DNA of 64,000 bases from Octopus vulgaris. Its lineage: Eukaryota. Below the pieces are notes generated by a model, which was given only the letters and a program-made list of their open reading frames with translations, made no database searches and was not told the DNA's origin. The position numbers were made by a program, and so were the translations under genes. The number at the start of each line of letters is the position of its first letter. Positions within the stretch are counted from its first letter, which is position 1. The stretch spans positions 66,030,001 through 66,094,000 of the forward strand of contig OX597824.1 in the NCBI GenBank assembly GCA_951406725.2. Reading direction: 5' to 3'. This document shows positions 867 to 55,354 of the stretch, one piece after another.

Positions 867-929
867 TCACCCAGCTTCTTGTTTACATTTATCAACAACA
901 GAAACTGGTGGCAATATTTTTTTGAAATC
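867..929 (-). CDS. SPATA17: SPATA17-like copy B exon 10 (DFKKILPPVSVVDKCKQEAG*)
   Basis: ctctctaactgtag acceptor, phase 0, TGA at 867-869; resembles the SPATA17 C-terminal DFQTVLP segment. Confidence 0.85.
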   Translation of the reverse strand, partial: DFKKILPPVSVVDKCKQEAG

Positions 930-9900: not shown

Positions 9901-12900
9901 AGGGAATATTCCAAGATGTTTTACTACACAAAAGTTTATGAGATAGTGGTTAAATTTACAAAGTGTTCTCATCTGTTATTAACAGGTAACAATATGTGGA
10001 ATGAAATCTATTAACTGCCTTACCCGAATGGTGAATTATAAACACCAGGAATGACTGCTGTACTTATTAGATGATGTTTCTTATAAGCTTGAGTTTTCTG
10101 GACTTCTTTTTTATAATTCATGAGAATTTCTTTCTCAATATCACTCTTTTTCTTTACAAATTCAGTAATGTGTGTACTAAAATAAAATTAAAGAGACAAG
10201 ATTCCAGTAGTCAGATAGTCCTTCATGAACAACACACATCTAAAACCCTCAAGGTTACTACAAATCATTGATGTTTTTCAGTGATTTCGCATACAAAATA
10301 TAGCAAAACTGCATCACAAAAACTGAGCTCTCTTTTTCAAGCAGTGAAAATACTTGATGTGTTAACTTTTTACAATGGAGTATTGTTTCCATATCTGAAA
10401 CAGTGTTGTTGCTGCATATATAAACATTATAGACAGAGAAAAGGGAAAAACAATCCACCCAACTGAAATGTGCAGTAACACACAGAAATTCTGGTCCACA
10501 GCATATTGTCTTCTCACTGTCTTTCTATCACTGCCATAGTAGCCTCAGTTCTTTAGAGCTGGCTGGTCTCATACCACCTTCACCCAGGCCCAGGAATTAT
10601 TAAATTATTTTTGTGATGACTTATTCAGACAAGGGAGTGCAGTACATACAACCTTTTTTCAGGGCCTCTATGATTGGTAGAAGGAAGGGAGGAAAGGTAT
10701 TATTGTTAGGCCTGAACACTTGTAGCAGAGATGGACTTCACTGCAGTATTAAACTGGGCAACAAATGATATCTACTATCCAAGAACAGAAACAGTTTCCT
10801 TGATAGGTTTCCAAACAATTTTCTGCAACAAAATTTCTCTCATGTGCCATTGGTTGATCAAAAGCTATGATAATAGACACTTGACAAAGATGCCATCCAA
10901 TGAGATCAAACCTGAAACACTATATTTGTGAAGCAAACTTCTAGACTGCACAGAAATGCTCATTCCCATGGATATGCAATAAGAACAAATAGTAACCAGA
11001 ATAGAGGTAGCTGATAGTAGAAAGGCATAGAAATGTTCTAGCTTTATGATTGCATAATATTAATGGATAGAATTGTTGTTAAACACCAGGTCAGGTTTGA
11101 TCAAGCATGCAGACATACAACTAAGTAAATGCATTCAGGCTCCTTCATTGGATTGTGACAGAAGCTACAGGTAAGTCTATAAAACAGATCTAGATCACAA
11201 AAGACATATTAATAAAAATGATCAGAGAATCAGTCTACTTACAGATAGTAAGAATTCTTTTCAATAATCAACTTCAGTTGATCCTTACGCTTGTAGAAAT
11301 TTAGAATGTATTTCCGACTGTAATATCCTTTCCATACCTTCTGAATCTGTATGAGTAATATATATATATGCAAAGTTTAGGTTAGGTAACATAGGTTTGT
11401 GACATATTTCAGCTGCTAAAAGGCAAATTCACTGCAGTTACTGTAGAGGAAACTTTTCTTTTATAGTAAAAAGGTGTGAAAGCACCCTATCTGTTTAATG
11501 TCACCATCTATTAGAATTCCCAAACATCAATGTTTCTAGCTCATTGGCTTTTATCAATGGGAAGTACTTAAGAGAGGCAACTCTGAACAGATCTTATAAA
11601 ACAAGAGCTTCATGTAAAATACAGTCAACAACATTGACTGATTTGTGCTGGTAGATCACCAGATTGTGGAAATTACTGAAATATTCGCGCCAAACAGTAT
11701 TTAGGCAGAAGCAAAGTTTAGATTAGTTAGAAAATGTTTGTGACATATTTCAACTGTGAAAAGGCAAATTCACTGCAGTTAACATAGAGAAAATGTTTTT
11801 CTTATGGTAAAAGGTGTGGAAACACCCTATCTCTTCAGTGTCACCATCTATTAGGATTCCTGGACATTGATGTTTCTAGCTCAGATGCACTCACAGACAC
11901 ACATGCCCTAACATGACAAGCACCCACCCAATAAACCCTTTTCTACCCCCACCAATACAGGTACCTCTCCACACCCCATGCATACATGCCCCCAGAGAAT
12001 TTAACCAAAGTTTTAACTAAAACATAAACAAAAACACACAAACGAACACACAGATGCCTATGCAGCCTTTGGTACCCACCTTGGAAATGCTGCACATATA
12101 GTACCACTGCACACATTCTAGTTCTATAGGAAAACCAACTCTAAAACATACATTTTCCCATACACTCTTTTCCAGAAAACACTTGTTCCCTCACATCACA
12201 CCCAGAGATGATACTTTGGTGCCAAGGGACATAACTCTTAAATTAACCCTTGTTTGGTTCGTTTCATCATCTGTTACACAGCAACTACAAACCGGATGTG
12301 TCTGTTCACCTCCAACAATAGAGAGCAGTCTCCATATTTCATTCCATAACTGCTATCTCTGAAGAGTGCATAGTTGCATAATCAGGTTGTTACCTAATAC
12401 TCCATCGAACTTCACTCAAAACTGATTAGTAAGATTGGCCATAATAGATATATAATACTGTACACTTCAATTAATAAATACACACACACACGAGGATCAG
12501 CTGAAAAGTTCCTAGGTTGACTAAGACACTCTCATGGAATGTGAGGAAATGAGGTTTATTTTTCAACATAGTCCCAGCATAATTCCCCTCCACACATTTC
12601 TTCCATCAGTGTTGCAGTGCTTGGATTCCATTGGTGAAGATTTCATCTTGTTGTTTAGAAAGTCCTCTACAGCATATATGAGGTCATCATTACTATTATT
12701 CTGGTTCCCAGACAAGTGTTTTATCATGTTGGAGAACAGATGATAATCAGATGGGACCAAATCAGGAAGGGAGGTTAATCAATCAATTCAAAGCCACAGT
12801 CATGCACAGCAGCCATTGAAACGAAGATATGTGAAACAAGATCCCTTTAGTTAGTTTTGCTCAGCATTTAATCATGATAGCCGAAGAGGACTTCTGATGT

Positions 12901-15900
12901 GGTGAAAATGACCTGCTCACCCAAGCAAGCATAGTGAAATGAACCTTAAAAATTGTGGTATTGAGGGAGTATTATCTTATGCACACTGTCACCTTATTTA
13001 CTGTGCATTGCAACTGGAATGCAGAAAATTACAGATGAATGAAAGGTGAAATCATATACATAGCTGTTTGCGTGTGTGTGTGTGTGTGCATTTGTAAAAG
13101 TGGAAATATGTCAGTATATAGGATGGAATGTGAATGAAAAAAAACACCCTAAAGAATGTTCATTCAAAACACTATCAAATCTGCAACATTCTTTTTTTTT
13201 TTTTAATGACTATTTTCCGTGCTTGCACGGGTTGGATGGCTCCTTTCCAACACTGTTGTGCCACTTGTTCTTTTCCTTTGTCATTTCCTTTTGTTAGGTT
13301 CAGCAACCTGATATCAATTTTCACCACTTCTGCTGTTCATGCCATCTTTGATTTTCCTTTCCCACAGCAGCTCCCTTCCACTTTGATGTTTAGGTACTTC
13401 TTTACTCAACTATCATCAATTATATGAAGCATATGTTCATACCAACGCTGTCTTATACACTACTTCTGATTACTCTCCTATCCAGTTTTTGTTTGATATG
13501 TGCATCATCATTCATATACACTGACATTATCTGCTTTTGTTTGGAGGTAGATGATGCTTCAAGAATCTACTCTTTGTTATCAACAGAAGTAATACCACTC
13601 TGAACTTTTTTCACCTTGTTTTGATTGTGGATACTTTTCTTTCACTACACCTTCCTTCACTGTGTGTGTGTGTGTGTGCGTGTGTGTGTATGTGAGAGAG
13701 AGAGAGAGAGAGAGTTGAAGGAGGATGAGGATAGTCAATAAATTGGTGCATTAGACAAAAATACTTTGTGCTTATATTACTTCGGTGGACATAACCATTC
13801 AGTAAATAGAGATGGATAAAAAAAGTACCTCAGAAAGTATTGGGGCTGATAAACTCAACTTAGATAGTCCACTCTGAGGAACTGCTATCAGTAGAAAAAG
13901 GATAAAAAAATAAGAGGGAAAGTTTCAAAGAGTAGAAGAAACAAACCTTAGTAGCCATTTTTTCATAATGATTTATACATTTTTCATAATATCTCGTCTA
14001 CAAAAGATAAAAAGTAACAAGAAGATCAATAATGAAGAATTTAGAATCAAAATAAGGACTAAACATTCAGCTTGTGGAAGGCTGTATACTGAAATATTGA
14101 TGTCTAATTTTGGCACAAGGCCACTCGATTTATTTTGATTTATTTTATGTTTTAGTGGGGTGTATCATTGATTAAATCTATTCTGGAAGCATGAAAGGAA
14201 AAGTTGATCCCAGATGTAATTAAACTCAGAACTTAAAACACTAAATAATTATCACACAACATGTTGTCTGGCACCCAACCAATTCAGTCAATCACTTTGC
14301 TTTATACATTGAAGTGACACTATATTATTAAATAGTTCTACAGAGTTGATGCATGGGTTTGATGCTTCTACAAATTGTTAGAATAACTGATTTTTATATA
14401 ATGAGGGATTTGGTTAAATTAAGGAATATAGAAGTTTGACTATGATAAGTGATGCTGTATGCTTTGTCTAAGATAAGTAGTTAGATTAATTGAAGTAAGT
14501 TAATGATTAAGTTTTATTTAAAACTTTAGCATTCGGATTATTCTGTCAAATGCAATGTTTATTTATTCACATTATCTTGAATTAATCATGCATTATCTTG
14601 TGGCTTCAAGATTTCAGTGATGTGATGTTTATTTTTACTATAACATTGTAAAGTAGGTGTGAGATGTTGGATCAGGCCAGTTTGAACATAACAAAAGGAA
14701 GAATATTTTGGCTGGATATGGCTGGTTTAAATGATAAAGGGTCAAGGGAACCTAGATTGAAGACCAAAATCATCAGTGTGATATGTCTGGTCTGTTGGAA
14801 CTCAGCTTACTGATGACTGCTACAAAATTTGAACTAATTTCCTTAATTAATTGCATATTGTAGAATCCCCCGCATACACCACAAGCTATTTCAGCAGCTT
14901 GTGGTGTATATGGGAGATTTGAAGTAAGACACCTACCTTCTCTTTGTCCACACAGACCTCTCCGGTGGTAATGCACCCTTCCATGTGGCCCAACCTGAAT
15001 GCTAAAAATAGCAGCTGCTTTTCCCTCACCTTGTCGAAGCACTCACACGTCCAGCACTGTCGGCTACCCCGATTGAAAAAAAAGCCCAATCGTCCCCTGC
15101 CTGGGCATGTGTCATTCCTGCGCCCTTCCTCTTCCGGTCAGCTCCCAAGTTCCAGTCAGCACCCCCAGCTGCTGATGTCATCCCACAAGTACTATCAGTA
15201 ACTGTACAGTGACTGAAAGAACATAAGAGAAAGAATCACTTTTATCAGTTCACAGCATCTACTGCCTAGTGTTTGTGACCAAAGAGGAGATAACCACTCC
15301 AAAATGCTTGCATTTCACAATCCAGATAGGTGGCACCATGAACTAATTTAGGTGTATTTACACCATTTGTCTACAGCGAGAAATTTTCTCTATGACAAAA
15401 CACAGTGAATGGTTTGTTTATGAGTCCAAACATACCACAAGCATATTTGAACTGGTAATGACATTGCAATTAGTACAAATACTGGTGACAGGGTAGATAC
15501 TACCAACCAGTCTGGTTGTTTATCCAGCAGCTAAAGCATGTCAGCCCATCAAAGCAGTAACAGACAGTCAGTCAGTCAATCATCTACACTGAATGACAGA
15601 TGAGTTTCAACACTTACCCAAAAGTAATGAGCGAAGTAGACACGAGCTTTGTACCCTCGCCAGTTTCGCTGAATAACAATAGCAGCATCAGTGCGGAGTC
15701 TACCAAAAGAGAGAAATTATGGAGATTACAGAATTCGCAAATGGGAATTGTGGAAAACTATGTGTGTGTGTGTTTGTGAGATTTAATAGATACAAGATTT
15801 AAAATTAAGCTACTATAAGTTTCATGCTTACAAAAAGTACTATAGATGTGTGCCATGTATTATAGTATAGTGTGCCATGTACCATCAAGCAGTCTTTCAG

Positions 15901-18900
15901 ATTCAGGATACAACACAGTTGTTCTCTGAGAAAAAGCAAGACAAGATGAAAAATTACTTGATAGTATATGACATACTATACAAGGTCACCTGACAATAGT
16001 ACAATTTTAAGTATGAAAATGATAGAAGCTCAATTTTAAACACTGTGTATATTATGATATTTATCTCTCATCAGATAGAGCACATTTTTTGTTGATCCCA
16101 CCAATTGATGAAGCAATATACAATATGTGTGTGTGTGTGTGTGTGTGCATGTATGTATCTTACATTATTTGAAGATTTAATCTGGGGCTTAATGAAGAAT
16201 ATATGAAGCATGCATTACAACAGTATCTAGGATTACATTATCCATATGTTCTCTTTTTATGGGAGAAAGATGAGTAAGTATATTGAGATCAATCCATCAG
16301 GTCATCAATGAACAATTTGTACCACAAGCTACTCTCTTTTTCACTTTGTGTTACGTAGAGTCTTTTGTACTTAAATCCACAGAACAAACATACACACATT
16401 TGCATAACTAACCCTTTTGATACTATCCTGCCAGAAACCACTTCTGGATCTGTGATACAAACATTCTATTTTAAAGTGATCTGAATTAAAAGTTCCCATC
16501 AAAACTTCATGTTACTTTATGTTCCAAACACCAGTTTAATAATGACAAAGTTTCTTCATTATTTTCAAAATTAATTGAAACAAAGACAGTGGTCTTTAAA
16601 CAGAAATATAGTGACAAAAGGGTTACTTTACAGTTTATGAATGTTATAAACCTAAACTCGAATATCAAAGTTTAGAAGGTTTTAATCAACTAAAAATACA
16701 GCAATATACAATACAAACAAAGATTGCTAAATTGTAAGAAAAACCAAACTTCAACACAGTAACATTTTTATGCAGCGAGTTGCTACATTCTAGACTAACT
16801 AAAATCAACGCAAACAGAACAGAACTCCGTGCAGTTGCACTGCAGGCATATAACAGCAATTGAGACAATCAAAATCATGTAATCAAAACAAAAATCACAA
16901 CATTGAATTAATAAACTTAATTTTTGTAACTATTTATTCAATATGTTTAATTTTTCTTATGTTGTTTAGGTAGTTCTAGTTCACCCTAATCCTCCAGAAA
17001 TATGATCAAAGGTGTTCTTGTAACTGCCCTGATTTGTTTTTCATGCAACTGTATCTAGGATTACATTATCCATATGTTCTCTTTTTATGGTAGAAAGATG
17101 AGTAAGTATATTTAGGTTATGCAATTGGTTCGTATAGCTTTCTATGCTTTTTTCTTTCATTTTTTTTTTTACAGGTGTTTAGATGTTAGATTCCTATAGC
17201 TTACTAAGTCTAAAGGGTTTTTTATGGTTCAGCTCCCATTTTCATCATCATCATCATTAATCAACATCCAAATTCCATACTAGCATATGCAGGACAGTTT
17301 GACAGGATCCAAAGGGCTCAAGGACAGCATCGTACTCCAATGTCTGCTTTGGCAAATGGAAGAGATATAAATCTTCCTTTGGATAGGATTCTGGCCTACT
17401 ACAAATAACATTTCCAAATGATCATATGATGCCTATTGTGAAAAGCTATGAGAAATGATGTGAGCAAGTTCATGAGATGTTGAGAACTTTCTAGCTTATG
17501 TGCAGAACAAAAGGGACAGAAAACTGCAGTGATAATTGTTATAAGTAAGCAGCTTACAGCTTACAAAAAGAAAACAAAATAAAAAAGGAAAGTATGAAAA
17601 ATGTATAAAGAAAATAAATTGCTTTAACTTACGCAAACTTTGAATCTTCTATCCAAACTTTGAGTTTGTAAAGAGGCATGCTCAATGGCCTTTGAGCACG
17701 GCTAAAAATTAAAAAAAATTTAAAAATCAAAATATTAAGTTTGTTTTCAAATTCGATCCTCAGAATGATATTTTGAAACGTTATCTTTACATCATGCATC
17801 AAATTCATAAATGTTGTGCTTATATTAATTACATAAGTCCACAACAGTGATTAAATTCAAAACTTCTGAGAGCAGTTCTAACTGACTATTATAGTTTGTC
17901 AATGTTATCCAAGTAGTATACAATGAAACTGTGTTTAACAACAAATTGGTAGTCACCTTAAACAGTCCTGACCATGCAACATTAGCTTAATGATAAAAGA
18001 TTGGCTAGATAGATATAGTGTGCAAATATTGACCAAATACATTTAAATGTTAATAATACAATAAATATACGAGGGTAAGTAAAAAATTATATGCACTTTT
18101 CTTTCTATAATTTATTAAAACAAAAGCAGGGTTTGAACAATTACACCATTTTTCAATATAGTCTCCTTACTCTTTGATGCAATTCTTCCAGTGGCCCACC
18201 AGCTGGCTTATTTCAACAGCAAAGGTTTTCTGCTAGTCGTGCAGCTATTAATGCACCACTTCCTGCACTTTGTCCATAGCAATTCGACAACCTCTCTAAG
18301 GATGTTTGAGCAGTTCTAAAAGGTGATAGTCAGAAAGGGCAAGGTCTAGACTGTATGGAGGGTGTTCCAGCAACTCGAAACCCAATTTTTCAATAGTTTC
18401 AACAGTGCGTGGGGATCATATGTGTTCATTGTCATGTAACATTAACACTTGGTATGACAATAGACCTTGATGTTTGGTGCAAATTGCTGGTTTCAGTTTG
18501 TTGGCCAGCATTTCACTGCTGACAGGAGACCCCTTTCTCCATATAATCTTCCAGTATATGTCCCTTTTGTGCTCCCCAAAACGGTTCACATCACATTCTG
18601 CAGAAGGTTGAGGCTTGAATTTCTTTTTCACTGGTGATTTCTGGTGTTTCCACTCCATGCTCTGCCTTTTAGATTCTGGCTCAGACTGAATATTCATTCC
18701 CAAAAACACTTTGCCTTCATCACTATAGTGGTCGACTAAGCATTGACAGATCTCCACATGACTGTGCTTATGCAATTCGGTAAACTCTCTTGGCACCCAT
18801 CTTGCACAGACTTTACACAAACAAAGCTTGTTGTGGATTTTGTATGCAGGACCATGTCTAATTTGAAGGGGACATGCCACCTCATTGATGGTCATTCATC

Positions 18901-21900
18901 TGTTCGCCAGAACCATCTTTCAAGATTACTGAGTTTTCATGTCAGCGGCGGAGGTTGATTAGCATCCTACTCCCTCTTTGTGATTAACTATTGTTCATCC
19001 ATTTTAAACTTCTCAATCTACTCATAAACATTTCTAAATGATAGAGTGGTGTTCTTGTACTGAAAGCCTGCAATGAATTTGTACTAAAAGCCGGTGATGA
19101 ATTTGTACTGAAAGCATGTGATCAATGGTTTGATTTCACTGAGAAATCAGACCACCGATCTCTCTACAGATGGAGAAGTTAATAATGAAGACCCACTGAT
19201 AACATTAACATGTTAAACTTGGCAAAGGATATTTAACCCTTTAGCATTTAAACCGGCCATATCCGTCCAAAAGTATTCTACCAGTTTTATGTTCAAAATG
19301 GCCAGATCAGGTCTCTCACACCAACCCTACAATATCATTTGAAAAATTAACAGCTACCTCATCAAAATCTCATGGCTACAAGATAATGCCTGATTAGTTC
19401 AAAACAATGTGGATGAAAAGCATTAATTTTGGCAGAATAATGTGAACACTAAAGGGTTAAAAGCCATCTGTTCAACTGATTCTGAGATTTTTCATAATCA
19501 AATTTAATCCAGGTTTCGTTTTTATCAGCATAAATTAAATAAGGTGCATCTGTAGGAAATTTTAGTATATTATCCTTATAATGAATTATTTGTCCAGTTT
19601 TATAATTATCTGGCAGCCCTAGATGAAAAGCAATGACTAAAAAGAGCCTTTAACAAATACTTAGACATTCCAATTGATGGACTTTTTAATGCAGACTTTC
19701 TGTTGTATCATTAGGTTTTATATTGAAGGTCAAACTTCCAATTTTCTTATAACCAAATTGGTTTTAAAGAGCAGTTTTTATTGAAGGAATTTTGCTTCTT
19801 TGTCTGATATTGCTGCTATTAGAACACCAAAATGAAAAATACTAATTTCCTTATATTTTCTGAGCTCTCCCTGGAATATTGAAAAGCATTGGCTGTGTCA
19901 ACTATCATTGACCCATTTTCAACATTTTGTACACATCCCCAGTCTGTATGTAACCTTCCCAGGGTTGTGATGTAGCCGACTCACTGCACAAATATATTGT
20001 CAGTGCATGTCACAAGATCTGATTTAATTCTTCAGTATCTCTGCTAATATTAGGCCACCAAATACAAGCCCTTATTTTATTTTACTCTTATATGTGTCAT
20101 AAATTGTAGAAACCATTTTTGCATAAGATTCAGGAATATATTGCCTATTTTAATTACAGATAAGGTCATTTTCTAAAATAGGTTCAGAAAATGTCTGGCA
20201 AAAAATTGTTCTAAAGGAGTTGGTCTAAACTACTCTTATTTTATGTCAATGCAGTTCTTTAATCCTTTGCCTGTCCAAAGCATTTTCATAAGTTTGTCTT
20301 AAACATCTTTGTTTTCAGATTTTTAGATAGCCCTTGTTTCCTGTGTTCTGTGTAATGTAAAGCTTTTCTTTCATAAAGCCAAAGTTACTCTGGTGGATGA
20401 AAAGAAATTGGAAATGTGTATCATATATGATGCACGGATACCAAGGAAATGTCTTGTGTATCATATTATACACAGGACAGCTAAAGAGTTAAGTAAACGT
20501 AAAGAATACATGTTTTAAAATAATTTTTAATATCTTCAACTGTCTGAACATTAGTAAAAGTTAATTCATCATGAACTAAGTCAGATCAAACATTGCATCA
20601 AACTGAATTGAGTCATACTTTAGTATGAATAGTACTAAAATCAGGCATGTGAATGATTTGGGAATCATTTTAAGGGCCTAGCCAGTAATCTCATGAGGCT
20701 TATCTAGAAACATCAATATCCTTTGCAAAAAATAAATCAAACAACTAATCATTCTCCTGTATGAAAGATTTACCTAATAGAAAATATCTCAATCTTTCAA
20801 CACACCACATCACTCTATAAACTTCAAGTTCAATTTCTCCGTGTACTATCAAATGTATGACTGAATGCTTCACATTTTCCTTTTTGAAACATTATTCTTG
20901 AGACATTCATTATCATCATTTAAAGTCTGCCTTCCATGCTGGCATGGGTTGGACGGTTTGGTAGGAGCCAGACAGGCAAAAGACTACACCTGGCTTCTGT
21001 GTTTGTTTTGGCATGGTTTTTACAGCTGGATGCCCCTTCTAATACCAACCACCCTACAGAGTGGACTGAGTGCTTTTTATGTGGCAGTAGTACAGGTGAG
21101 GTCAGTTTTGACATGGTTTTTATAGCTGGATGCCCTTCCAAAAGCCAACCACTTCACTGTGTGGACTGGACGCTTTTTATGTGGCACCAGCACTGGTAGG
21201 GTCAGCAAGTAATACAATTTATCCCACACTTGGTAAGGACTGTTTAATTTTGTTCGAGTACAATTAATTATGTTAATAAAAGTTAATTCTAATAAACTCT
21301 GCATCTGGGTAATCTTTGATTGCAGAAAATTCACATAAAGAATTAAGTATATTAAGGTTTAGCAAAGACTTATTGGTTCTTTTTGTTAAGGTATTAGATT
21401 CAAACTTAGATTTAAGGCGGCGAGCTGGCAGAAACATTCGCACGCTGGGCGAAATGCTTTGTGGTATTTCGCCCGCCGCTATGTTCTGAGTTCAAATTCC
21501 GCCGAGGTTGACTTTGCCTTTCATCCTTTCGGGGTCGATAAATTAAGGACCAGTTACGCACTGAGGTCAATATAGTCGACTTAATCCGTTTGTCTGTCCT
21601 TGTTTGTCCTCTCTGTGTTTAGCCCCTTGTGGGTAATAAAGAAATAGGTATTAGATTCAAACATTTTAAACTTGAGTTAGGTATTTTTCAAGGTTTAGTG
21701 ATTTTTTTCGTCAACAGTAAACTTTAAATATTCAGTTGAATGACCTTGCTATATTGTAGGCTAAAAAACATCTTGACTGGTACTTTATTTTACTGATTCC
21801 AAAAGAAAGCAAGTCAAAGTTGATGTTGGCAGGATTTGAGTTCAGAATATAAAGAGCCAAAAGAAATGCCTCTAACCATTTTCTCTGACGTGCTAACCAC

Positions 21901-24604
21901 TCTGCCAGCTTGTCTCTCAACCAGTTTACGCTTTTTGTCATCAATAGTTTTGAGTTAAACTATATTAGCTATGCCTCAGTAGAGTAGCCTAGGGTGTGCA
22001 TATCAAGCAAGGTGGCCACTTTATATGTGCATATAATGTAATTAGGACAGTCTTAAGGCACGGGTATACTGTGTAGTCACCCAGGTGCTTCACAAATCTA
22101 GGGGCCCATTTCTGATCTATGTATGCTGTGGCTTGCTATCAATAAATAAATACTATAGGGCCCAGTGTACTGATTTTCCCAAGGGCCGATAACGATGTTA
22201 AGAACGGCCTTTATTGTAATCGAAGTATACCTATTTCTTTACTAACCACAAGGGGCTAAACACGGAGGGGACAAACAAGGACAGACAAACAGATTAAGTC
22301 GATTATATAGACCCAGTGGGAAACTGGTACTTACTTTATCGACCCCGAAAAGATGAAAAGCAAAGTCGACCTCGGCGGAATTTGAACTCAGAACGTAACG
22401 GCAGACGAAATACGGCTACGCATTTCGCCCGGCGTGCTAACGTTTCTGCCAGCTCTACGCCACTGACAGATCTACCAATGTTTATTTTACACCTTTGTTA
22501 GCTGATTATTTAAACTTGCAAATTACATCACGTGTATTTGTTTACATTTGAAGAAGATTGTCACTTTCCGTAAAAGTTTTTTGGCAATCTTTCATCTCTA
22601 GTAACCTTTCCGTCGATTTCCGTAAAACAAATATTTTTTTTACATATGGGCTTGCGGGAACTTTTGAAGTAATGAGAGCGAAAGAGACTAAGAGAAAGCG
22701 ATTGTATGACGAGGGAAGTTCTTTTGAAGTTACCGTGCATGGGAGCATTGATGGACATGTGTGTGTGCGTGCGTGTGTGTGTTTGATGGGGTGTAGGTGA
22801 AGTGCTTCTGTTAGTGTGTGTGAAGAAACAGAGTAATGTGTGAAAGAAAGAGATAACTGAAATTTTTTACTAGGTGTATGTGTATATGTATGTATATTAC
22901 TTCAAAAGTTCCCGCAAGCCCATATGTAAAAAAAAAAATTTTTTTACGGAAATCGACGGAAAGGTCTACTAGAGACGAAAGATCGCCAGTTTTTTTTATA
23001 TAAGTGGGTTAGGGTTAGGGTTACGGTTAGGGTTGGGGGTGAAGGTTTTCTTTTTTCTTCAGAAATGTAAATAAACCCACGTGGGTTTATAAGTGACAGC
23101 TATGTAACTAGTACCGAATGATCGCCAAATATATTCATTTTCTTGAAAGTTAAGACGAAATGACGTGGGCTCCGGTGAATTTTCCGAAATTCCCCCCCCC
23201 CCAAATTAGACCGTATCCTACTATGCCACATATTTTATGCACTTTAGAAATAATTCCTGATGGACAAGGGGCTTTCACAGACTTCATATTCTTAACTGCT
23301 GCAAAAAAAAAAACCAAAAAAAAAATGGCTGGTCCCTCACTTATGTTCACATTAGAACAGCTCTCACACATTTAATAGCCTTTCATATTTGCAAGCCGTT
23401 CATTTTCACTTTTAGATAGTGGGATGGGGTTGCGAGGGGTGTATACTCTTTTACTCTTTTACTTGTTTCAGTCATTTGACTGCGGCCATGCTGGAGCACC
23501 GCCTTTAGTCGAGCAACTCGACCCCGGGACTTATTCTTTTTGTAAGCCCAGTACTTATTCTATCGGTCTCTTTTTGCCGAACCGCTAAGTGACGGGGACG
23601 TAAACACACCAGCATCGGTTGTCAAGCAATGCTAGGGGAACAAACACAGACACACAAACATACACACATACATACATATATATATATACATATATACGAC
23701 AGGCTTCTTTCAGTTTCCGTCTACCAAATCCACTCACAAGGCATTGGTCGGCCCGGGGCTATAGCAGAAGACACTTGCACAAGATGCCACGCAGTGGGAC
23801 TGAACCCGGAACCATGTGGTTGGTTAGCAAGCTACTTACCACACAGCCACGAATCAATTTTGGAGTTTCCTCATAGAATATTTGAAATTAATTATTTTCT
23901 TTTTTCCATATTCTTATAGCCTGTTTAAAATTTTGGCAGAAGACCAGCAATTTTAAGGGGAGTGGGTTAATCGATAACATTGACTCCAGGACATAACTGG
24001 TATTTATTTTATCGATCCCGAAAGGGTTGAAAGGCATAGTCGACCTCGGCGGAATTTGAACTAAAAAGTGAAGAGGCGGAAGAAATGACACGAAGCATTT
24101 TGCCCGACGCGATAACGATTCTGTCAGCTCACTGCCTTTGTCTAATGATAATGACGACTGCTTCAAATTTTTGCACGGTCAGCAATTTTTAGGGGTAGGG
24201 ATTAGTCGATTAGATCGATCTCAGTACTACTCTCTCTCTATCCGCTAAGTCGAAGACCGAAATATGCCAATCTACGCTTGGTGATCCCAGCTTCTAGCGA
24301 CATTTTTGACCTGATCTGCTTAAGAAGTACACTTGTACTTTATTTTATTGGCTCCGAAAGGATGACAGGTAATGTTGACATCGGCGGTATTTCAACTTAG
24401 AATGAAGAGAGTCGGAACAAATACTGCAAAGTAGTTTTCCGATGCTCTAGCAATTGTACCAGCTCCCTGTTTTAATAATAAAAAGAACAACAATGGTAAT
24501 AACTATAAGAAGAAATATCTCGATGTAACTTACTTTCTCTTAACATAAAGCTGTTTGATAAGCTGGCACTCCACCCTGAAATTGAGATACTGTAAATGTG
24601 ACAT
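867..24604 (-). CDS. SPATA17: SPATA17-like IQ-motif protein, copy B (10 coding exons, ~335 aa)
   Basis: Exons 24534-24604, 17633-17701, 15618-15699, 13947-13997, 11243-11346, 10024-10176, 6313-6451, 3817-3962, 2824-2953, 867-929. All are GT-AG, phases are compatible, total 1008 nt with no internal stop. Motifs IQRNWRGYKAR, IQKVWKGYYSRK, HHLISTAVIPGVYNSPF and GPFLNPEQVMRKRYKPLNP match recalled SPATA17. Confidence 0.9.
2824..2953 (-). CDS. SPATA17: SPATA17-like copy B exon 9 (CLPSKVDEPKYEP...YGRLNFRE...GKK)
   Basis: ttccag/gtaagt sites; 130 nt, same length and phase as copy A exon 9. Confidence 0.88.
3817..3962 (-). CDS. SPATA17: SPATA17-like copy B exon 8 (GPFLNPEQVMRKRYKPLNPNLQTET...)
   Basis: ttaacag/gtaaat sites; GPF...RYKPL motif. 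Confidence 0.9.
4712..4934. repeat. ~220-nt imperfect palindrome of Penelope-like terminal sequence with decayed hammerhead cores
   Basis: Arms are reverse complements around TCAGAATTCTGA; CTGAAGA-stem-(G>A)AAAC at 4851-4883. Confidence 0.7.
6313..6451 (-). CDS. SPATA17: SPATA17-like copy B exon 7 (QNHEAENFLK...GLQKPQ)
   Basis: Ends QKPQ|gtag as in copy A. Acceptor is either AAG (exon start 6451) or an in-frame TAG (exon start 6481). Confidence 0.75.
6924..8729 (+). mobile_element. CR1-clade LINE, 5'-truncated, with an intact RT reading frame and (ATT)n tail
   Basis: Frame open from DSKVFWKYV through YRPVSLTS, YLDFAKAF, GVPQGSVLGP, YADD, ERDLG to TRGH; short 3' UTR and (ATT)n tail. Confidence 0.95.
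10024..10176 (-). CDS. SPATA17: SPATA17-like copy B exon 6 (THITEFVKKK...HHLISTAVIPGVYNSPF)
   Basis: attttag/gtaagg sites; conserved IPGxYNSPF motif. Confidence 0.92.
11243..11346 (-). CDS. SPATA17: SPATA17-like copy B exon 5 (IQ3: IQKVWKGYYSRKYILNFYKRK...)
   Basis: catacag/gtaagt sites; 104 nt, as in copy A. Confidence 0.92.
12489..12830 (-). mobile_element. Mariner remnant
   Basis: LVPSDYHLF motif; cgaggatcagctgaaaagttc TIR-like end. Confidence 0.7.
13947..13997 (-). CDS. SPATA17: SPATA17-like copy B exon 4 (TRYYEKCINHYEKMATK)
   Basis: ttttgtag/gtttgt sites; 51 nt, ends MATK as in copy A. Confidence 0.88.
15618..15699 (-). CDS. SPATA17: SPATA17-like copy B exon 3 (IQ2: LRTDAAIVIQRNWRGYKARVYFAHYFW)
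   Basis: ttttggtag/gtaagt sites; 82 nt, as in copy A; canonical IQ motif. Confidence 0.92.
17633..17701 (-). CDS. SPATA17: SPATA17-like copy B exon 2, read in a shifted frame (RAQRPLSMPLYKLKVWIEDSKF); IQ1 vestigial
   Basis: atttttag/gtaagt sites; 69 nt, phase 2-2, open. The other frame holds a decayed IQ (ASLQTQSLDRRFKVC). Confidence 0.7.
18068..19200 (-). mobile_element. Degenerate mariner transposon
   Basis: KVCARWVPR, PESKRQSMEWKH, LHDN and YSxDLAxSDYH motifs; TA-CGAGGGT terminus at 18068. Confidence 0.88.
19233..19460. mobile_element. TTAA-flanked piggyBac-type MITE
   Basis: TTAA|CCCTTTAG...CTAAAGGG|TTAA; other family copies at 36143-36369, ~14520-14745, ~32388-32615 and a split copy at 6761-8785. 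Confidence 0.8.
21413..21650 (+). mobile_element. tRNA-derived SINE, family 1 (Meta-domain-like)
   Basis: GAGTTCAAATTCC B-box; GCCTTTCATCCTTTCGGGGTCGATAAA core; flanking direct repeat aggtattagattcaaac. Confidence 0.85.
22228..22460 (-). mobile_element. SINE family 1, inverted relative to the 21413 copy
   Basis: Reverse complement of 21413-21650; further copies at ~23960-24140, 29198-29400, 35905-36090, 59662-59865. Confidence 0.85.
22582..22988. mobile_element. Foldback/MITE with ~90-bp inverted arms
   Basis: ...cctttccgtcgatttccgtaaaa...acatatgggcttgcgggaacttttgaagtaat is mirrored at 22897-22988. Confidence 0.75.
23440..23850 (-). mobile_element. tRNA-derived SINE, family 2 (CORE-like, with an internal microsatellite)
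   Basis: TGGCTGTGTGGT A-box, GGTTCAGTCCC B-box, accttgggcaagt-like core; copies at 30833-31215, 54945-55605, 59185-59570. Confidence 0.85.
24534..24604 (-). CDS. SPATA17: SPATA17-like copy B exon 1 (MSHLQYLNFRVECQLIKQLYVKR)
   Basis: aaaATG start, gtaagt donor; 71 nt, phase 2, same length as copy A exon 1; LxxQxY pattern shared. Confidence 0.82.
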
Positions 24605-25104
24605 TTTTCGTTATTAATTTCCCTGCGCTGACAAGAGGTTATGACACGGCCACCACTTCACACGATTAATTAAATGGGCAAAACCTCTTTTCCTTTCACT
24701 TTTCCTTAGTAATTTCTAACGAGGAATTCGTTGCGTTCAAATTTCAGAACGCACAACAATGTTAAGGTTTGTTACGAAGAGTGCGTTGATTTTTCTCTTT
24801 TTTTTTTTTTTTGTGTAAGTCTGTTTTGGAGCAGACGACTTCATTATTTGGTCATGCAAATACGAATAACTATATATCGTACAACACACCTCAACATCGT
24901 TGGCAGCACTCAAGAAATGGTATTGGCATACGAACTTTGTTTTTGCGGCCACCCTGTGACCTTGTCGACAGGGTGTTTTCTTTTTATATAAATAAGAGTA
25001 AGAAGAAGTGGGGGATCTTTTCCTTTTGAAGGCCAAAAGGAAAAGATCCGAAGTGGGGGATTCACAACCTTAGACTGAAAATTTTGGGGCGCTGGGAAAC
25101 CTCT

Positions 25105-25335
25105 TTAATGACTATTGAAGCGCGCCAGCACGCTTGCAGCGTTGCCGCGGGTGATGGCGAGGTTGATGCGCTGGAACAAGTGAGCGTCATCACGAGCTTC
25201 ACCAGATACCTCTTGAAGGCAAGCTACCAGAGAAGACAGGAATCACGCAGTCAGTGGTCCGACCCTACCAAACGTCTCGAATGCCACAGGATGGAAAATG
25301 TAGTTGACCGATAGATCGCGGCACTTTGTTGTTAA
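25105..25335 (-). mobile_element. CRE-like RLE non-LTR retrotransposon, C-terminal fragment
   Basis: Minus frame YIFHPVAFETFGRVGP...LFQRINLAITRGNAASVL* with one internal stop; resembles the CRE-clade C-terminal motif. Confidence 0.75.
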
Positions 25336-25574
25336 TCTTTAGTTCTACAAAGTTGTTTTATGAGGTAAAACAATATAAATTATTCAGATTTTTCATATGT
25401 AAAATATCAGAATATTTCATTTATTTATTTGAAGTAAAATAAGCGTAATTATTCGATTTTTTTTTTTTGTAAATCAGGCGTGAACAAAAAATGAGTTTCG
25501 ACGTTTAGCAGCTGACTTAATAGAATCCTACAAGATTAAACACAAACTTTGGCTATTTTTTGAAATTTAATATC

Positions 25575-25750
25575 TCTACTACTCGTCCCGTCGACATGCA
25601 TAAAAATCTAAAAACACCGTAGCACCCATGATTTCGGAAACATTTTTTCACACTCCAAATTGTCGAAGCATGGAATAAACTATGTGTCAGCTGTGTGTAC
25701 ACATGCACACGTATTCTTCAAATATTCTATGCTTCTGATATTCAACACTA
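25575..25750 (+). mobile_element. Old CR1 3' ORF fragment
   Basis: cccatgatttcggaaacattttttcac...gaagcatggaataaact matches the CR1 above. Confidence 0.7.
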
Positions 25751-26779
25751 CCGCTGATGGGTTAACATGCAGTTAACCGTTGTAAAAAAAGTGAAAGTAA
25801 ACTGTCCAAAAAATAAAAGTAAATTGTGATAGAAACCGGAAGTAATATCAGTGACATGCCAAAATTTCTTCAAAAGAACGATGAACTCCCACGTTATACT
25901 ATGATACACTTGCATACTTACACAAGTGTGTCCACTCCATCTTTGTTTCCTCATGACATTCAGAAAAATGGATATTTTTAATGAAATTTTCTACAAATAC
26001 TTTTCAGATGGTGTAAATTACGATTATATTGGAAGTTTTAAAAAATTTTGCTTATTGTTTACTTTATTACCCGGTCATGAAAACAAAAGAGAAAAAAAAA
26101 AAAAAGCTAGTGCAACAGGCGTAAAAAAATGTGTATGAAACAAATATGAAAACAAAAATGCGGGCAAACCAACCGGAGTGGGGAGAGGACTTTCAGAAAC
26201 TTCCCAAGATCCGAGTTTTTCCCTCATAACTTTTAGGAAAATGGCTTTTTCTAATGAAATTTTTTATATAAATACTTTTCAAACTGCATAGATTATGATT
26301 AAAATAAAATTGGTAAATTTTGATCCTTTCACCCACATGATTTTCTCTAAGGAAAAAAAAATTCGAATTTTTTGCATGGAATCAAGTACCCTGATCTAAT
26401 ATGCTGCAAATCCCTTGTTTTTGTTTGGAAAAAAAAGGGGTGGGGGAAACTGGATCCCACCCACATCCCGGAATCTTGGGAAATTAAAAAAAATTTTCAT
26501 TGAATGAATTACGGTGACCTAATATACTACAAAACCTTTTTTGGGGTCCGGAAAACGGCAGGACAGGGTGGAAACCTTGGAAATTTCACTCCCACCCCCA
26601 TTTTCAAATATTTTTTGCTCTTTCTTTCTTTAATAATTGCTTGTGAACTTAAGGATCATTGGAGTGCATAAAATTTTCTGGCTGTTTCAAGGCATGTCAG
26701 CCATCTAAAATATGACAGAATTAGCCAGGGGCAACAAGCCTTTCAGTTAATAGTAGCTGTCAAGTTTCATCAGTTCTGG

Positions 26780-31912: not shown

Positions 31913-33221
31913 ATAATGTGGTTAATAACAATAATAAGTTAATTAAGTTGGTGATGATATATTTAATGCAGTGAGCATTAAAAAGTTAATATGGAATAGT
32001 CATTCAGTGAGGTAAAAACAATATAAGTCAATAGTTCATATTTTAATTATCCTTAATAAGTATGGAAGACAACTCTGAACATTATACCTCAGTGAATCTT
32101 ATTATTGTACCTCAGTATATATTCCAAAGTAGTGATCTGAAAATCACTAAGTAAATATACACTAGTTGATGTAGAAAATCAACATATTTAAGAGAATAAA
32201 TTACTCGAAGATGTCACCAACATAAAAAGCAATAATTAAGTCAGTGCTAACCTGTTTAATGCAGTGAACATGAAAAAGCTAAATCTACTTTGAGGTAGAT
32301 ATGTTTCATGCTGATGAGACAGTGTTGTGCAGGTGGAGGCAGGAGCTGTATAAGTTAGATCTTGTTACAGTAACACGCTGTTTATCTTTAACTGTTTAGC
32401 ATTGAGATTAGTCTGTCAAATGTAATGTTTATTTATTCACATTGTCTCAAATTAATCATGCATTATCTTGTAGCTCCAAAATTTTGAGATGTAATTGTTA
32501 TTTTTAGAATGACATTAGAGGATAGGTGAGAGAAGGCAAATCTGACAGGTTTCAAGTAGACTATTTGGGCCTAAAATGGGCCTGATATAGCTGGTTTAAA
32601 TACTATTGAGTTAAATATATTCTTTTTCTTTTCATGTTAGTTATGTCAGTATAAGTTGATAGAAGTTGTTTTACATTAACAGTAAAAAATTCCCAAAGGA
32701 TACCATCTATAGGAAGAACAATTGAGAACTAAATGTATAATCAATAAAAATTACACTGCCAAGACAGCTCTCCAATGTCATAAAAACAGAAATCATTAGC
32801 ATTAATGATAATTCATACCAATGGCTAGACAGAAAACTGCAATATGAAACTGATTAACAATTAAAAAAGTGGTATATAATAGGAATGAAATATGTATGGT
32901 GGCAACTCTGGATATATTTCTATCTTATGAGATCTATTCAGCTAAGCATAGTCTTACTCATACTTACCATAACTACAGGAAAAAAAAACATTCACTGATT
33001 AAATAATTAAAAATCTCTCCAAAAACATGGGATCCCTTCTACATGGAGAACATATGGTTAAGTGGGAACTAAAATAGTTCATATAATGTGGTTAATAACA
33101 ATAATAAGTTAATTAAGTTGGTGATGATATATTTAATGCAGTGAGCATTAAAAAGTTAATATGGAATAGTCATTCAGTGAGGTAAAAACAATATAAGTCA
33201 ATAGTTCATATTTTAATTATC
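31913..33221 (+). repeat. Exact 139-bp direct duplication (31913-32051 = 33083-33221)
   Basis: Identical by eye from ataatgtggttaataac to catattttaattatc. Confidence 0.9.
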
Positions 33222-34782: not shown

Positions 34783-34808
34783 TATATATGTATATATATA
34801 GTACTCAC

Positions 34809-34887
<79 letters not shown>

Positions 34888-34942
34888 TATATATATACAC
34901 ATACATATCTATCTGCCTGTCTGTCTATCTATCAATCTATCT

Positions 34943-34975
<33 letters not shown>

Positions 34976-35020
34976 CACACACATACACACACACACACAC
35001 ACATACATGCATACATACAT
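34783..35020. repeat. Compound (TA)/(CA)/(TC) microsatellite
   Basis: Direct inspection. Confidence 0.95.
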
Positions 35021-35808: not shown

Positions 35809-35847
35809 TCAAGCATAGGAACTGTTTGATATGCATGACTTGAAGTC
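35809..35847 (-). CDS. SPATA17: SPATA17-like copy A exon 10 (DFKSCISNSSYA*)
   Basis: ttttatttttcag acceptor; starts DF like copy B; possible +1 frameshift near 35826. Confidence 0.78.
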   Translation of the reverse strand, partial: DFKSCISNSSYA

Positions 35848-38800
35848 CTGAAAAATAAAAAATTCAATGATACAATAAAATTCATGTAGAGGGAAGATTT
35901 TACATCTATTTCTTTTACTACCCACAAGGGGCTAAACATAGAGGGGACAAAGAAGGACAAACGGATTAAGTTGATTACATTGACCCCTGTGCGTAACTGG
36001 TACTTAATTCATCAACCCCGAAAGGATGAAAGGCAAAGTCGACCTCAGCAGAATTTGAACTCAGAACGTAAAGGCAGACGAAATATCTGAGTTTAGAATA
36101 ATAAATGAAGTACTTGGATGTAATACAGAGAAACAGCTTGATTTAACCCTTTAGTATTTAAACCGGCCATATCCGGCCAAAATATTTAATCTGTTTTGTG
36201 TCCAAACTGACCAGATCCAGGCTCTCACACCTACCCTACAATGTTATTCTACATTAGGTAATTACAACATCAAGATCTTGAAGATATGAGATAATGCATG
36301 ATTAATTCAAATCAATGGGAATCAATAGGCATTATGTTTGATAGAATAATCTGAACACTAAAGGGTTAAAGGAAGACAACTGTTACTGTTGTTTAACAGA
36401 AAAGTCAGATCTGGTTGAGCAGATATATGATCAATAGTGTTTCAGCTATGATCAACACATTTTTTTTTTTGCACATAGTGTGTCAAGGATGACATTAACT
36501 TGTATTCTCGCTATCTTTTTTAAAACAAAAGGGTATGATTTAAGAGAGATTTGGTTATTTCTCACCAATTGAGCTACCATATTCATTCATTGACTCATTG
36601 TTGCTGTTTAGTTGCATTGCCAGAGTTCTTGAGCTCACCTATGATCAAAAAATTTTCTTGACATGGATATTCCATATTTAAATTTTGAGGCTTAGTCTAT
36701 CTAGGACTATATTATCTTACATGTTCTTTTGTTTTAAAGAGTACTGTGATTTGAGGGAGATTTGATTACTACTACTACTTGCAGATTGAATAATTGCATA
36801 AATGTTTTCTCATTGGCTTGAGGTAGACACCTATTTTAGTATATAAAGTTAGGGAGATATTGGCTCTCTTACCTTGTCTGATATGAATAATTTGTGGTTC
36901 GTCTCTCTGAAGTACTTCATGCCATATGGTCTGTGACCATATTCAGACTTTGTATGGAGAAGAGGTTGGTATTTTGTTGGGTAGTTTTTAGCTGATATGA
37001 AACTGGAAAAGATATTAAAAGACTGAAGTTAATATCAAGTTTATTTTGAAGCTTATAGTTTAAAAAATTTCTCGAGATGAAAAACAAATCTTATCAAGAT
37101 TTATCTCCGCATGCTTGATTAACAATATGTATTTCTTCTATTTTACAACTGATTTCAAGGACAATGGACTGCAAAAAAAAATTCTTGCATAATATAGAAA
37201 TAAAATAAATAAATTGAACTCTTCATGTATGTAAAGGAAAGCCTTTTCCCATTTATAATATTAAGGTAAAATATTCTTAAAACTGAAAATCGAAAAGGAA
37301 AATAAGAGTATCGATATACAACTTAGATCATAACAGTGTTGACTCTTCTTTTATGATTGTCTGGGGAAAAGGGATGTTGTTACTAGATCAGAAGGCTGGA
37401 GTAGAGGTATGAAAATTTAATGTAGTGTAAAATATATATATATAAGGAGAAGAGAAATTTTTAACAGTTCTTCAGAATCATTTTTACACTAGATTAGAAC
37501 AGAAATATGTAAAATGGGAGATTTATATCAAACTTACTTATCATCATGGAGTCTTTTTGCCCATTCTTCCATTTTTAATTCCTTTCTTGCTTTTTCTAAA
37601 GAATCAAAACTAGTTTCTACACGAAGTGTGGGTTTCAGAGGTTTGTAGCGCTGCAACTGTACATTTGCAGGATCAAGGAAAGGACCCTGAATATTTGAAG
37701 ATAAATAAAAAGAAAATATCAGTAATTATAAAGATTTATTCTGACTAAGCATACAAAAGAGGAGGAAGTTTCACTCAAAATTTAAAATCCAAGGGGGCCA
37801 TTAGTATGTTACATTGCATTTGAATAGACTATTAATCCTTAATCTTTATGACTTTGTAGTGTATGGGAGATCAAGTGAAAAAAAAATCAACTGGCACACT
37901 ATGCATGGAACATTAAAACCTACTGGTACATTTCATATAGAAAGATATAAAAATTTCAGAATTGGAAAGTGTGAGTGTGTGTGTGCATGTGTGGTATCTA
38001 AAACTGTATGTGTAGAGTGTAGAAGTGTGTGCACGGCTCAATGAATCATCTGTGTATGCTAGCTGGTGAAATTATCCTGGTTTGCTTGCTGTAATTGGTT
38101 ATGATGTGGTATTCTTTTACTGTTTTTAATCATTGGACTGCAGCCATGCTGTGGCACTGTCTTGAAGAGTTTAGTCAAACAAATCGACTCTAGTACTTAT
38201 TCTACTGAGCTCTTTATGGGTATTTAAACAAACTAACAGTGCTGTGGAAGACAAACACCGACACATATATATCATGATCATAATCATTGTTTTAACATAC
38301 ACTTTTCCATGCTTGCATGAGTTGGCTGGAATTTGTTGAGATAGATTTTCTACAGCTGGATGCCCTTCCTGTCACCAATCCTCACCTGTTTCCTAAGAAG
38401 ATAATATTTCTCCTAGACCAAATGTCTTGGTAGGCTGGAAACAAAGGACACTGCCTGAATGACAATTGACAATGACACTTTTTTTTATTTCCCAGTTTTT
38501 ATTTCCTACTTCCTGTATGAAGCTCTTGTGGTCCTGCATTCCTTATCAGTTGCAGCCAGTTTTACTAACATAAATAATGTAAATCTTTACTGTCTCTTCA
38601 ATTTCACTCCAATCAACCTTTTGTTGAAGGACTCAGAAAGACTCTTTTTGAAATGTTGGATTTTTCACTTCCCATAGCAAGTTCTCTGTACTCTTGTTGA
38701 CTTTACTAAATATTACAAATCTTGCCAACACAGACCAAAACCAATCTTTTTGGATTCTGTTTGTATCTTTTATTTTTTTTTTAGTTCTTGGACAGTATCC

Positions 38801-41800
38801 ATGCTGGGTCATTGCCTTGATGGCTTTTAGTTGAACAGGCTGACCCCAGTTTTTAGTTTCTTTTTCAAGTCTAGTACTTATTCTATTGATTCCTTTTGCC
38901 AAACAGCTAAATTATGGGGATATAAACAAACCAACATCAGTTGTCAAGTGGTGTGGGACACACACACACATACACACACACAATTGTCTTCCATGCAGTT
39001 TCTGTCAACCAAATTCACACACAAGGCATTGGTCAGTCTGGGGCTGTAGTAGAAGACACTTGTCCAAAGTGTCATGCAGTAGGACTTAACTCAAACTTGA
39101 GTCTACAATGCAGCCCTAAACTTACCAGTTTCCTGTTAAACTGTCCAACCCATGCCAACATGGAAAGCAGATGTCAAATGATGATGATAATATATATATA
39201 TATATATACGCGCATACACACACACATACACACACACATACACACACTATAAATAACACAATATTGGAATGAATTTTCTGAAGCTTAACATTATATATTT
39301 TTATTTAAATATTTAGAGTGCACCAGTGCTTTGCAGCACACAATTTGAGAACCACAGCAATAAACAGATAACCTAGTTGCAACAGTCTCCTTTCCAAATG
39401 GGCCAAAGTTTACAAGCCTTACTAGGTGCAATAGGAAAGTTAGATCACATTATTGCCTAAATCTAAACCTAATAAAGAATGTAGTTGCTAAATTATAAAT
39501 TTTTAGTTTAATAGTGGAAGTAATAATTTCTTACACAGATTAAATTTTTTTAAATTTCAAAAATATAATTTCTTACACAAATTAAATTTTTGAAAATTTC
39601 CCAAAACATGATTATATTTTCCAACTAAACAAGAAACTTATACAAGGTTACAGTGACACCCAATACAATGGCATCGCAAATTCTGCATAACAATGAAGAT
39701 AATATATAAGTGAATGAAGTGATAATAATTAATGAGCTGGATGAAGGAACCCTGATTGGACATTAATAAAGTAAAATGGTGTCTTACTTGAGGTTTCTGT
39801 GGAAGTGGCGGCAAAGTTTTTGGAGGAATTAACTGACATCCGTTATCAGTGGATATCTGGAGTGTGCCTTGCTTTAAATCATAAAGTGAGTGATAGATTT
39901 CTGTTTGCTTTGATTTCCTTGAATATTAAAAGAGCAGAAAAAACTTGATCTACTTTCTATTTGGTTAATTCTTAATCTTAACTTGAAACTCCAGAATTGT
40001 TAATTATTCAAACTTTGTAAAGAAATTATGTAAATCTTTGAACAGAAAGTGAAAGATATTTAATTCTATGAGTGAAAACAGATTTGATTTCACTGGAAAG
40101 TAATTTTATAAATAATCTGCACATTTGAAAGAAAATTTAACAGTGGATATAAAATTTTTTCTAGGTCTCCATCCCTTCTCTTAATGCTTGATTATAATAT
40201 ATGCAAACATTTTATGAGATCTAAGCAAATTCATGGGCCCATATATAAGTTGCAACCTTGTATCTTCCTCTCAGTTGGTCCTGTACTAAACTTTTGTTAA
40301 GTAGTTTTGGAGTTAACCCTCCTCCACATAGTTTTGGAGATCAAGAGGATCATTAACTCTATTGATCTCACTGGTTTGGGACAACCTGGGAAGATCATGG
40401 GCATGTTTTTTCCTTGAAACCAAATTCCTCAACAAATATCAGTCAGTAGGGTACAAGAAAATCTTGCAAGAGATCAATGGTTTGTGTCCTTTCATTGGAG
40501 CTGCATTTTATTCATGGCCAAGAGACTTAAATTTCAACAACCAAGTCCACCTAGCTTTATGTAGGTACTGTGAGTGATATAATTCACTTCTGTAACACCA
40601 CATCTTATCCAGAGTGAGTTTTGTCTCTTATCAGCTGTAACATTATATAAAAATACAGTTGAGTACTGGTCCTACCAGTTTGTAGTTTGGAAAGGATTAG
40701 TCTTAAATGGGACAATTTTTATCTTTGTTGAGACAAAATAGTAAAGTCAATATCATTGGTTACTGACTCATGGATCATATGTACATACCTGTTGGAGGCA
40801 TCTTGGCATGTTTCTTGACAATACACTTAATTTTACATACTTCAATCCACTTAAATGTGTAGAATAGGTAGCAAATCTTCTGAGAATGCTACATGAAATA
40901 ATTAATGTTGTACCTAGGACAAAATTTGTTTTCCTCCAGTTTACATTAGTGTATAGACATAAGCAGTTGCATTATGAAGCCTTGCAGAAATAAATGGTAG
41001 AGTGGATATGATAATGGATTACCAGCTCAAAAGTATTGAAATCAAATCCACAAAAGATATTTCAATGTATTTTGGAGTCCATACACCTAGTTCTGCATAC
41101 TTTACTTCAAATCATCAAACCTTTTGTAATTGGTATAGTATAATCTAGGAATGTTGCCTGAAATAAACTAGCCTTCCATCCAGGAGGAACTGTGTCTCTC
41201 ACTGGTTGAATACTATAAAAACAAAGTTAAACATAACCCCATTAACATTCTCTTGAAGGTTTAAGAAACATTTAAGTTTACATTGTTCTAAGATCCTGTA
41301 GATCTTAATAAAAAAAAAATTTTCTCTCTTTTCCTTACCTGCATGTTGTATTGATGTTGATTCCTGGGAAACTGTTTATGCCCTGTACACAGTTATATTG
41401 GAAAGCTTTCTGACCTGACATCATCTCTTTTAATTGACGAGCGATGATTTCTTCAATTTCTTTTGTTTCTTTTGCAAATTTATCAAGTTTAGCTCTGTAC
41501 ATGAAATGAACATTGCATTAGTCTTGGGAATTGAAGTAGGAAAAAAAGGGAACCTAATCTGGGAGTTGGTGGATAGGTTAATCTATTATTTCTTTTTTCT
41601 TCATAGGCACAGATGTGGCTGTGTGGTAAGAAGTTTGCTTCCAACCACATGGTTTTGAGTTTATTCTTGCTGATTAATGCCTTGTGAGTGAATTTGTTAT
41701 TTGGAAACTGAAAGAAACCTGCCATGTGAGTGTGTGTGTTGTGTGTATTTATCTACACACACACAAGCACATAAATACAAAACAAGGTAGAAAAGATAGT

Positions 41801-53278: not shown

Positions 53279-53314
<36 letters not shown>

Positions 53315-55347: not shown

Positions 55348-55354
55348 TATACAT

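Follow-up and report, generated by a model that had tools for sequence, protein, structure and literature searches.

Complementary, lopsided motif loss between two tandem SPATA17 genes of Octopus vulgaris

The window analysed here, 64,000 nucleotides of the Octopus vulgaris genome (assembly GCA_951406725.2, contig OX597824.1, positions 66,030,001 to 66,094,000 of the forward strand), holds two tandem genes of the SPATA17 family, here called copy A and copy B. Cilia of the 9+2 type contain SPATA17, known as FAP305 in Chlamydomonas, as a conserved core scaffold. Comparison with homologues from other species indicates a real and unusually clean case of complementary motif loss within this scaffold, lopsided in rate: A has lost a motif encoded in exon 6 that B keeps, and B has lost the first IQ motif (IQ1) and an LPP motif in exon 7 that A keeps. 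The explanation we favour, with confidence about evenly poised, is a lopsided subfunctionalisation in which A and B may divide the binding surfaces of the ancestral stalk protein of the C1a projection of the ciliary central apparatus. Subfunctionalisation as a process is well known, and public annotation already includes both copies. No paper on the octopus SPATA17 pair was found in the literature searched, the scope of which left out most subscription journals, and six Octopus maya supplement files gave no hit.

The two genes lie head to tail with 11.2 kb between them, have identical intron phases and share 108 of 322 aligned residues (34%). Copy A as modelled agrees with O. vulgaris CAI9730385.1 at 333/333 residues and with O. 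sinensis XP_029643134.1 at 328/333; copy B agrees with O. sinensis XP_036363322.1 at 335/335 residues and with O. bimaculoides XP_014784434.1 at 299/335. Public annotation has both copies in all three species, within each species on contigs of equal length. The B model used here has an N-terminus unlike those of two public models, CAI9730384.1 of O. vulgaris and isoform X1 of O. bimaculoides; these may be mispredicted or may use alternative first exons. Identity to named non-octopus members of the family was 36–45% for A and 29–38% for B, and both copies were placed inside a cephalopod clade with 100/100 support. On homology and tree position both genes are assigned to the SPATA17 family, each without one family feature: three IQ motifs are found in A and not in B (Pfam reports three IQ stretches in A-type proteins and two in B-type), and the exon-6 motif, which follows the N-terminal helix, is found in B and not in A. 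Family membership would further imply a place at C1a and binding of calmodulin, SPAG6 and the SPAG17 head.

The alignment contained A, B, 30 named outgroups (8 molluscs and 22 others) and four cephalopod-clade proteins, giving 34 outgroup rows. Motif retention was scored as a leave-one-out count of conserved sites, and bit scores were obtained from profiles built on the outgroups. The 150 listed matches of one search, except two Octopus proteins, were set aside from the statistics, as were other unnamed matches, named vertebrate entries that were partial or redundant, and near-duplicate members from Haliotis and Biomphalaria. The exon-6 motif scored 55.8 bits in B and -0.2 in A, IQ1 59.7 bits in A and -2.1 in B, and exon 8 95.9 bits in A and 41.9 in B (site counts in Table 1). 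The same motifs are near-invariant in the outgroups: the lowest of the 34 rows has 10/12 exon-6 sites, the lowest complete row for IQ1 has 11/15 (an N-terminally truncated Tegillarca model has 0/14) and LPP is complete in 33/34 rows. Conservation of the exon-6 motif extends to Chlamydomonas FAP305, and the motif is also present in mouse SPATA17 (chain 9IJJ_3B). The possibility that these motifs are variable anyway, raised with an earlier sequence-only reading of the window, is thus not borne out.

Other parts of the protein were retained in both copies. IQ2 kept 6/9 sites in each, and IQ3 13/16 in A and 14/16 in B. The division first proposed, with one copy for docking and the other for calmodulin binding, is not supported, because IQ2, IQ3 and the exon-8 block GPF..RYKP are all present in A as well as in B. 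The reciprocal losses on which that proposal was built fared better. Erosion of the exon-6 motif in A and its retention in B were confirmed, as was retention in A of IQ1, LPP and the late exon-8 block; of the corresponding losses proposed for B, those of IQ1 and LPP stand, but in exon 8 only half of the block has eroded, and its GPF..RYKP core stays. A C-terminus written DF..LP had been credited to B. No match to that string was found on the minus strand; the actual text is DFKKILPP, DFK occurs in both copies and both tails are eroded. The interval given for the pattern, 10024–41494, does span exon 6 of B to exon 6 of A, but excludes IQ1 of A and exons 7–10 of B.

The losses were reciprocal and clustered. 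Of the 92 conserved sites, both copies keep 49 and neither keeps 6; A alone has lost 12 and B alone 25. The idea that the pair together covers the ancestral motif set consequently holds for 86/92 sites (74 in A alone, 61 in B alone) and fails for the six lost in both. Discordant losses fell into 5 runs where 17.2 would be expected (p=5e-5, with p<0.001 at three other thresholds), and the losses of A were mostly in one block (9/12 sites, scan p=5e-4). Branch lengths on a fixed tree, which are rough since the partitions are short, mirrored each other, at 0.11 for A and 5.86 for B in the IQ1 exon and 5.63 for A and 0.24 for B in the exon-6 motif. Local relative-rate tests showed acceleration of A in exon 6 (14–16 vs 0–1 changes, p<=3e-4) and in the exon-6 motif itself (10–11 vs 0, p 0.001–0.002), and of B in IQ1 (10–11 vs 1–2, p 0.006–0.04) and exon 8 (14–16 vs 0–2, p<=0.004). 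Every such burst in one copy coincides exactly with a slow stretch of the other. The duplication–degeneration–complementation (DDC) model expects each copy to lack conserved elements that the other keeps, which is what the site counts and local rate tests show. It also expects an ancestral single copy with all elements, and the molluscs and the four cephalopod-clade proteins keep all motifs.

Synonymous sites between A and B are saturated, with a proportion of synonymous differences (pS) of 0.74 and 21/30 fourfold sites differing; the duplication is therefore old. Retention of both copies in three Octopus species, with intact frames despite this saturation, was counted in favour of subfunctionalisation. 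Free trees left the branching order of A, B and the cephalopod-clade proteins unsettled (65/31 in one tree). A clade of A and B is permitted by the approximately unbiased (AU) test (p 0.55), and a duplication after the split from the other cephalopod-clade proteins is thus only allowed. These four proteins, compared without regard to copy number and two of them placed in the tree (100/100 with the Octopus copies), carry every motif and look as the pre-duplication form would be expected to look.

The window was also compared with O. bimaculoides over 10 regions, some of which were picked after the data had been seen. The eroded motif of A (residues 165–184) differed at 5/20 positions vs 20/313 elsewhere (p=0.011, for one of the 10 regions). 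The altered segments of B were unchanged, with 0/23 differences in exon 2 (p 0.15) and 0/29 in late exon 8 (residues 243–271; p 0.056). The motifs retained in one copy opposite a loss in the other were likewise unchanged (exon-6 motif of B 0/19, exon 2 of A 0/30), neither result being significant alone. Because the eroded motif of A drifts while the altered segments of B do not, the change in A looks like relaxed loss and that in B like partial remodelling followed by new constraint. DDC has neither copy gaining a new function, and the frozen segments of B may point to a constraint that is new.

Several results weigh against a division of surfaces. The losses in B are diffuse (scan p 0.08–0.5), and 15% of B windows are as intact as the window opposite the lost block of A. 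No excess avoidance of shared loss was found: there were 6 double losses against 6.07 expected among the 92 sites, and 17 against 13.7 expected among the 120 sites of a molluscs-only set. The smoothed anti-correlation between copies (r -0.24 to -0.42, cyclic-shift p 0.065–0.21) was not significant, although the blocks are few and power is low. Both copies have an eroded tail (10.1 and 7.5 bits, where the cephalopod-clade outgroups score about 45), and A has in addition lost about nine residues there and ends early. B evolved faster than A in 9/10 partitions including the whole protein, with 78 vs 40 changes overall (p=6e-4), and the altered exon 2 and late exon 8 of B, pooled post hoc, gave 0/52 differences vs 36/283 (p=0.003), a freezing that fits new constraint better than decay. 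The available text of the structural literature contains no residue-to-partner map of SPATA17. Acceleration confined to one copy had been named in advance as evidence against complementary loss, and this is half the case: over the whole protein B was significantly faster in 16/16 relative-rate tests against the cephalopod-clade outgroups and A in 2/16, but A is fast locally in exon 6.

Subfunctionalisation can be set against what is described of the C1a projection in the available text of the cited sources. SPATA17 forms the C1a rachis, which runs out from C1 protofilament 3 and binds SPAG6; in mouse it bears three calmodulins (PMC12297659; bioRxiv 10.1101/2024.08.06.606614). FAP305 has a repeat of 16 nm (bioRxiv 10.1101/2022.01.23.477438; PMC9113940), as has C1a, with the C1 surface and C1e mainly at 32 nm (PMC12297659), and the O. 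vulgaris sperm axoneme is 9+2 (PMC11753710). AlphaFold2 predicted a single long N-terminal helix in both copies, the form typical of the family (A residues 2–170, B 2–164; predicted local distance difference test scores mostly 75–95), followed by a low-confidence chain. In structural alignment, model A was in register with 7N6G_4Q over residues 2–172 at 28% identity, with a Z score of 7.8 among unrelated helices; VIA-align returned generic long helices only, with FAP305 at rank 26/50, and a Foldseek search of PDB with model A gave 0 matches. FAP305 is modelled to residue 172 in 7N6G, which spans the first half of the exon-6 motif, and 9IJJ contains two SPATA17 chains.

Under subfunctionalisation each copy would form a whole stalk rather than half of one, with a predicted calmodulin-coated helix, because IQ2 and IQ3 are kept in both. 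A would carry three calmodulins and the LPP and exon-8 contacts, without the ancient contact just past the helix. For B, the prediction is a stalk shorter by two helical turns, with two bound calmodulins, that provides the post-helix contact. Exon 2 of B has 69 nt vs 90 nt in A, exactly seven codons fewer; a shortening of about two helical turns would leave the N-terminal segment on the same face. The exon-6 motif may be a docking contact. As the simplest account, B may cover for the exon-6 motif lost by A, and A for the IQ1 and LPP lost by B. The octopus pair is a natural deletion series: A is without the ancient post-helix motif and B without IQ1 and LPP. It predicts that these surfaces can work separately. 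The physical arrangement we would favour, although its overall probability is low, has both copies in one axoneme, where A and B would each take one of the two non-equivalent C1a positions of a 32-nm repeat, which have differing neighbours. Equally doubtful is the further step that octopus C1a stands on alternating stalks, three-calmodulin A and shorter two-calmodulin B, which would turn a 16-nm homotypic into a 32-nm heterotypic repeat. If such an alternation were true, the motifs lost from each copy would map the contacts used at each position.

A close rival, somewhat improbable in itself, is a tissue split with neofunctionalisation, in which somatic or embryonic cilia depend on one copy and sperm on a remodelled B, the faster of the two, or the reverse; each copy would act alone in its own axoneme, where its lost motifs are dispensable. 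Testis-biased, fast-evolving paralogs are common among axonemal genes. The acceleration of B over most of the protein agrees with such a split, as do its remodelled N-terminus, frozen at 0/112 differences between the window and O. bimaculoides (a boundary set post hoc), and the separate CpG-rich first-exon region of each copy (observed/expected 1.08 and 1.24). It would, however, require A alone to function without a motif kept in 34/34 outgroup rows and in Chlamydomonas, and B alone to function without IQ1 and LPP.

Independent erosion under redundancy, in which block-wise decay hit different blocks by chance and no labour was divided, is a less probable explanation than a tissue split, and we regard it as distinctly unlikely. 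Double losses at the independent expectation and non-significant block avoidance are what it would produce; A has just one or two loss blocks, and its eroded motif is still drifting. Against it, neither frame has broken even though synonymous sites are saturated, and this holds in three species; moreover, each copy almost perfectly retains the motif lost by the other. That the eroded segments are artefacts of mis-splicing, frameshift or mis-assembly, with intact exons elsewhere, is extremely improbable even though the exon models rest on genomic sequence rather than reads and two public B models have other N-termini: splice sites are canonical, phases match, independent annotations of other species show the same segments eroded, a six-frame search of the window found no alternative intact exon for the exon-6 motif of A or IQ1 of B, and residual homology runs in frame codon by codon, which speaks against a frameshift origin; the motif of A eroded by point changes plus one codon.

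Table 1. Coordinates of the two SPATA17 genes and their motifs (positions in the window; sites are conserved sites retained)
Feature	Position	Strand	Description
SPATA17 copy A	35809..54568	-	10 coding exons, 333 aa, open frame, GT-AG at 9/9 introns
Copy A exons 1-5	54568-54498, 50658-50569, 49720-49639, 47434-47384, 45678-45575	-	
Copy A exons 6-10	41494-41339, 39917-39788, 37686-37538, 37002-36873, 35847-35809	-	
SPATA17 copy B	867..24604	-	10 coding exons, 335 aa, open frame, GT-AG at 9/9 introns
Copy B exons 1-5	24604-24534, 17701-17633, 15699-15618, 13997-13947, 11346-11243	-	
Copy B exons 6-10	10176-10024, 6451-6313, 3962-3817, 2953-2824, 929-867	-	
B exon-6 motif HHLISTAVIPGVYNSPF	10026-10076	-	intact, 11/12 sites
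A exon-6 motif YNCVQGINSFPGININTTC	41341-41397	-	eroded, in frame, one extra codon, 3/12 sites
A IQ1	50580-50612	-	kept, 13/14 sites
B exon 2	17633-17701	-	IQ1 destroyed, 3/14 sites
A LPP, exon 7	39806-39814	-	3/3; B exon 7 (6313-6451) without LPP, 0/3
A exon-8 block QRYKPLKPTLRV	37618-37653	-	kept
A exon-8 ARKELKMEEW	37561-37590	-	kept
A exon 8	37538-37686	-	fully conserved, 12/13 early and 12/12 late sites; matches 9IJJ_3B residues 259-306
B exon 8	3817-3962	-	early KPQGPF..RYKP kept, 11/13; late 6/12
B exon 10 (DFKKILPP...)	867-929	-	tail partly kept, 2/5 sites
A exon 10	35809-35847	-	shortened, 2/5 sites

Around both first exons, at 22001–26000 and 54001–61000, CpG observed/expected was 0.7–1.24, and no other 1-kb bin exceeded 0.6; such values would fit each copy having its own unmethylated promoter. 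A scan for X-box sites gave four loose matches, none at either first exon. A second ciliary gene is transcribed divergently from copy A: an open frame at 62865–63734 (+) matches Pfam CMIP6, ciliary microtubule inner protein 6 (E 1.3e-7), with a possible first exon near 58509–58572 and an X-box-like site near 58370 that was spotted by eye.

Intron 6 of B contains a reverse transcriptase frame of the long interspersed nuclear element (LINE) type (584 aa, 6897–8723, +; Pfam RVT_1), the 3' 689 bp of which recur at 42938–43626 (+) in intron 5 of A at 99.6% identity; the two elements are recent independent insertions in non-matching introns. Just upstream of B, a frame at 25090–25260 (-) reads LFQRINLAITRGNAASVLA, which we take to resemble the end of a CRE-type retroelement. 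An IQ-like string at 25122–25139, upstream of B, was rejected as an IQ motif; it lies in another frame of what is presumably a retroelement remnant. An exact 139-bp direct duplicate (31913–32051 and 33083–33221) lies between A and B, and a 159-aa frame at 18416–18895 (-) without a Pfam match is presumably a decayed mariner-type transposase.

The closest known system is SPATA17/FAP305 itself (MOT17; C1a rachis, PDB 9IJJ_3B and 7N6G_4Q), which the octopus copies resemble in sequence, IQ motifs and long predicted helix. The octopus differs in having two tandem copies, of which A is without the post-helix motif that is common to Chlamydomonas, and B is without IQ1 and LPP and is seven residues shorter before IQ2. 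The c-ring of the fungal V-ATPase, discussed under DDC and constructive neutral evolution, likewise shows reciprocal loss of complementary interfaces after duplication in the available text (PMC7982386); unlike that case, the octopus SPATA17 rates are lopsided, the protein forms a periodic stalk and no ring, and complementation is a prediction. Chlamydomonas FAP114 and FAP119, in the C1a/C1e head, are likewise two paralogs in one projection, where mouse has a single CFAP119 (PMC12297659). That pair belongs to the head, whereas octopus SPATA17 belongs to the stalk, and the available text of the same source reports no reciprocal motif loss between FAP114 and FAP119.

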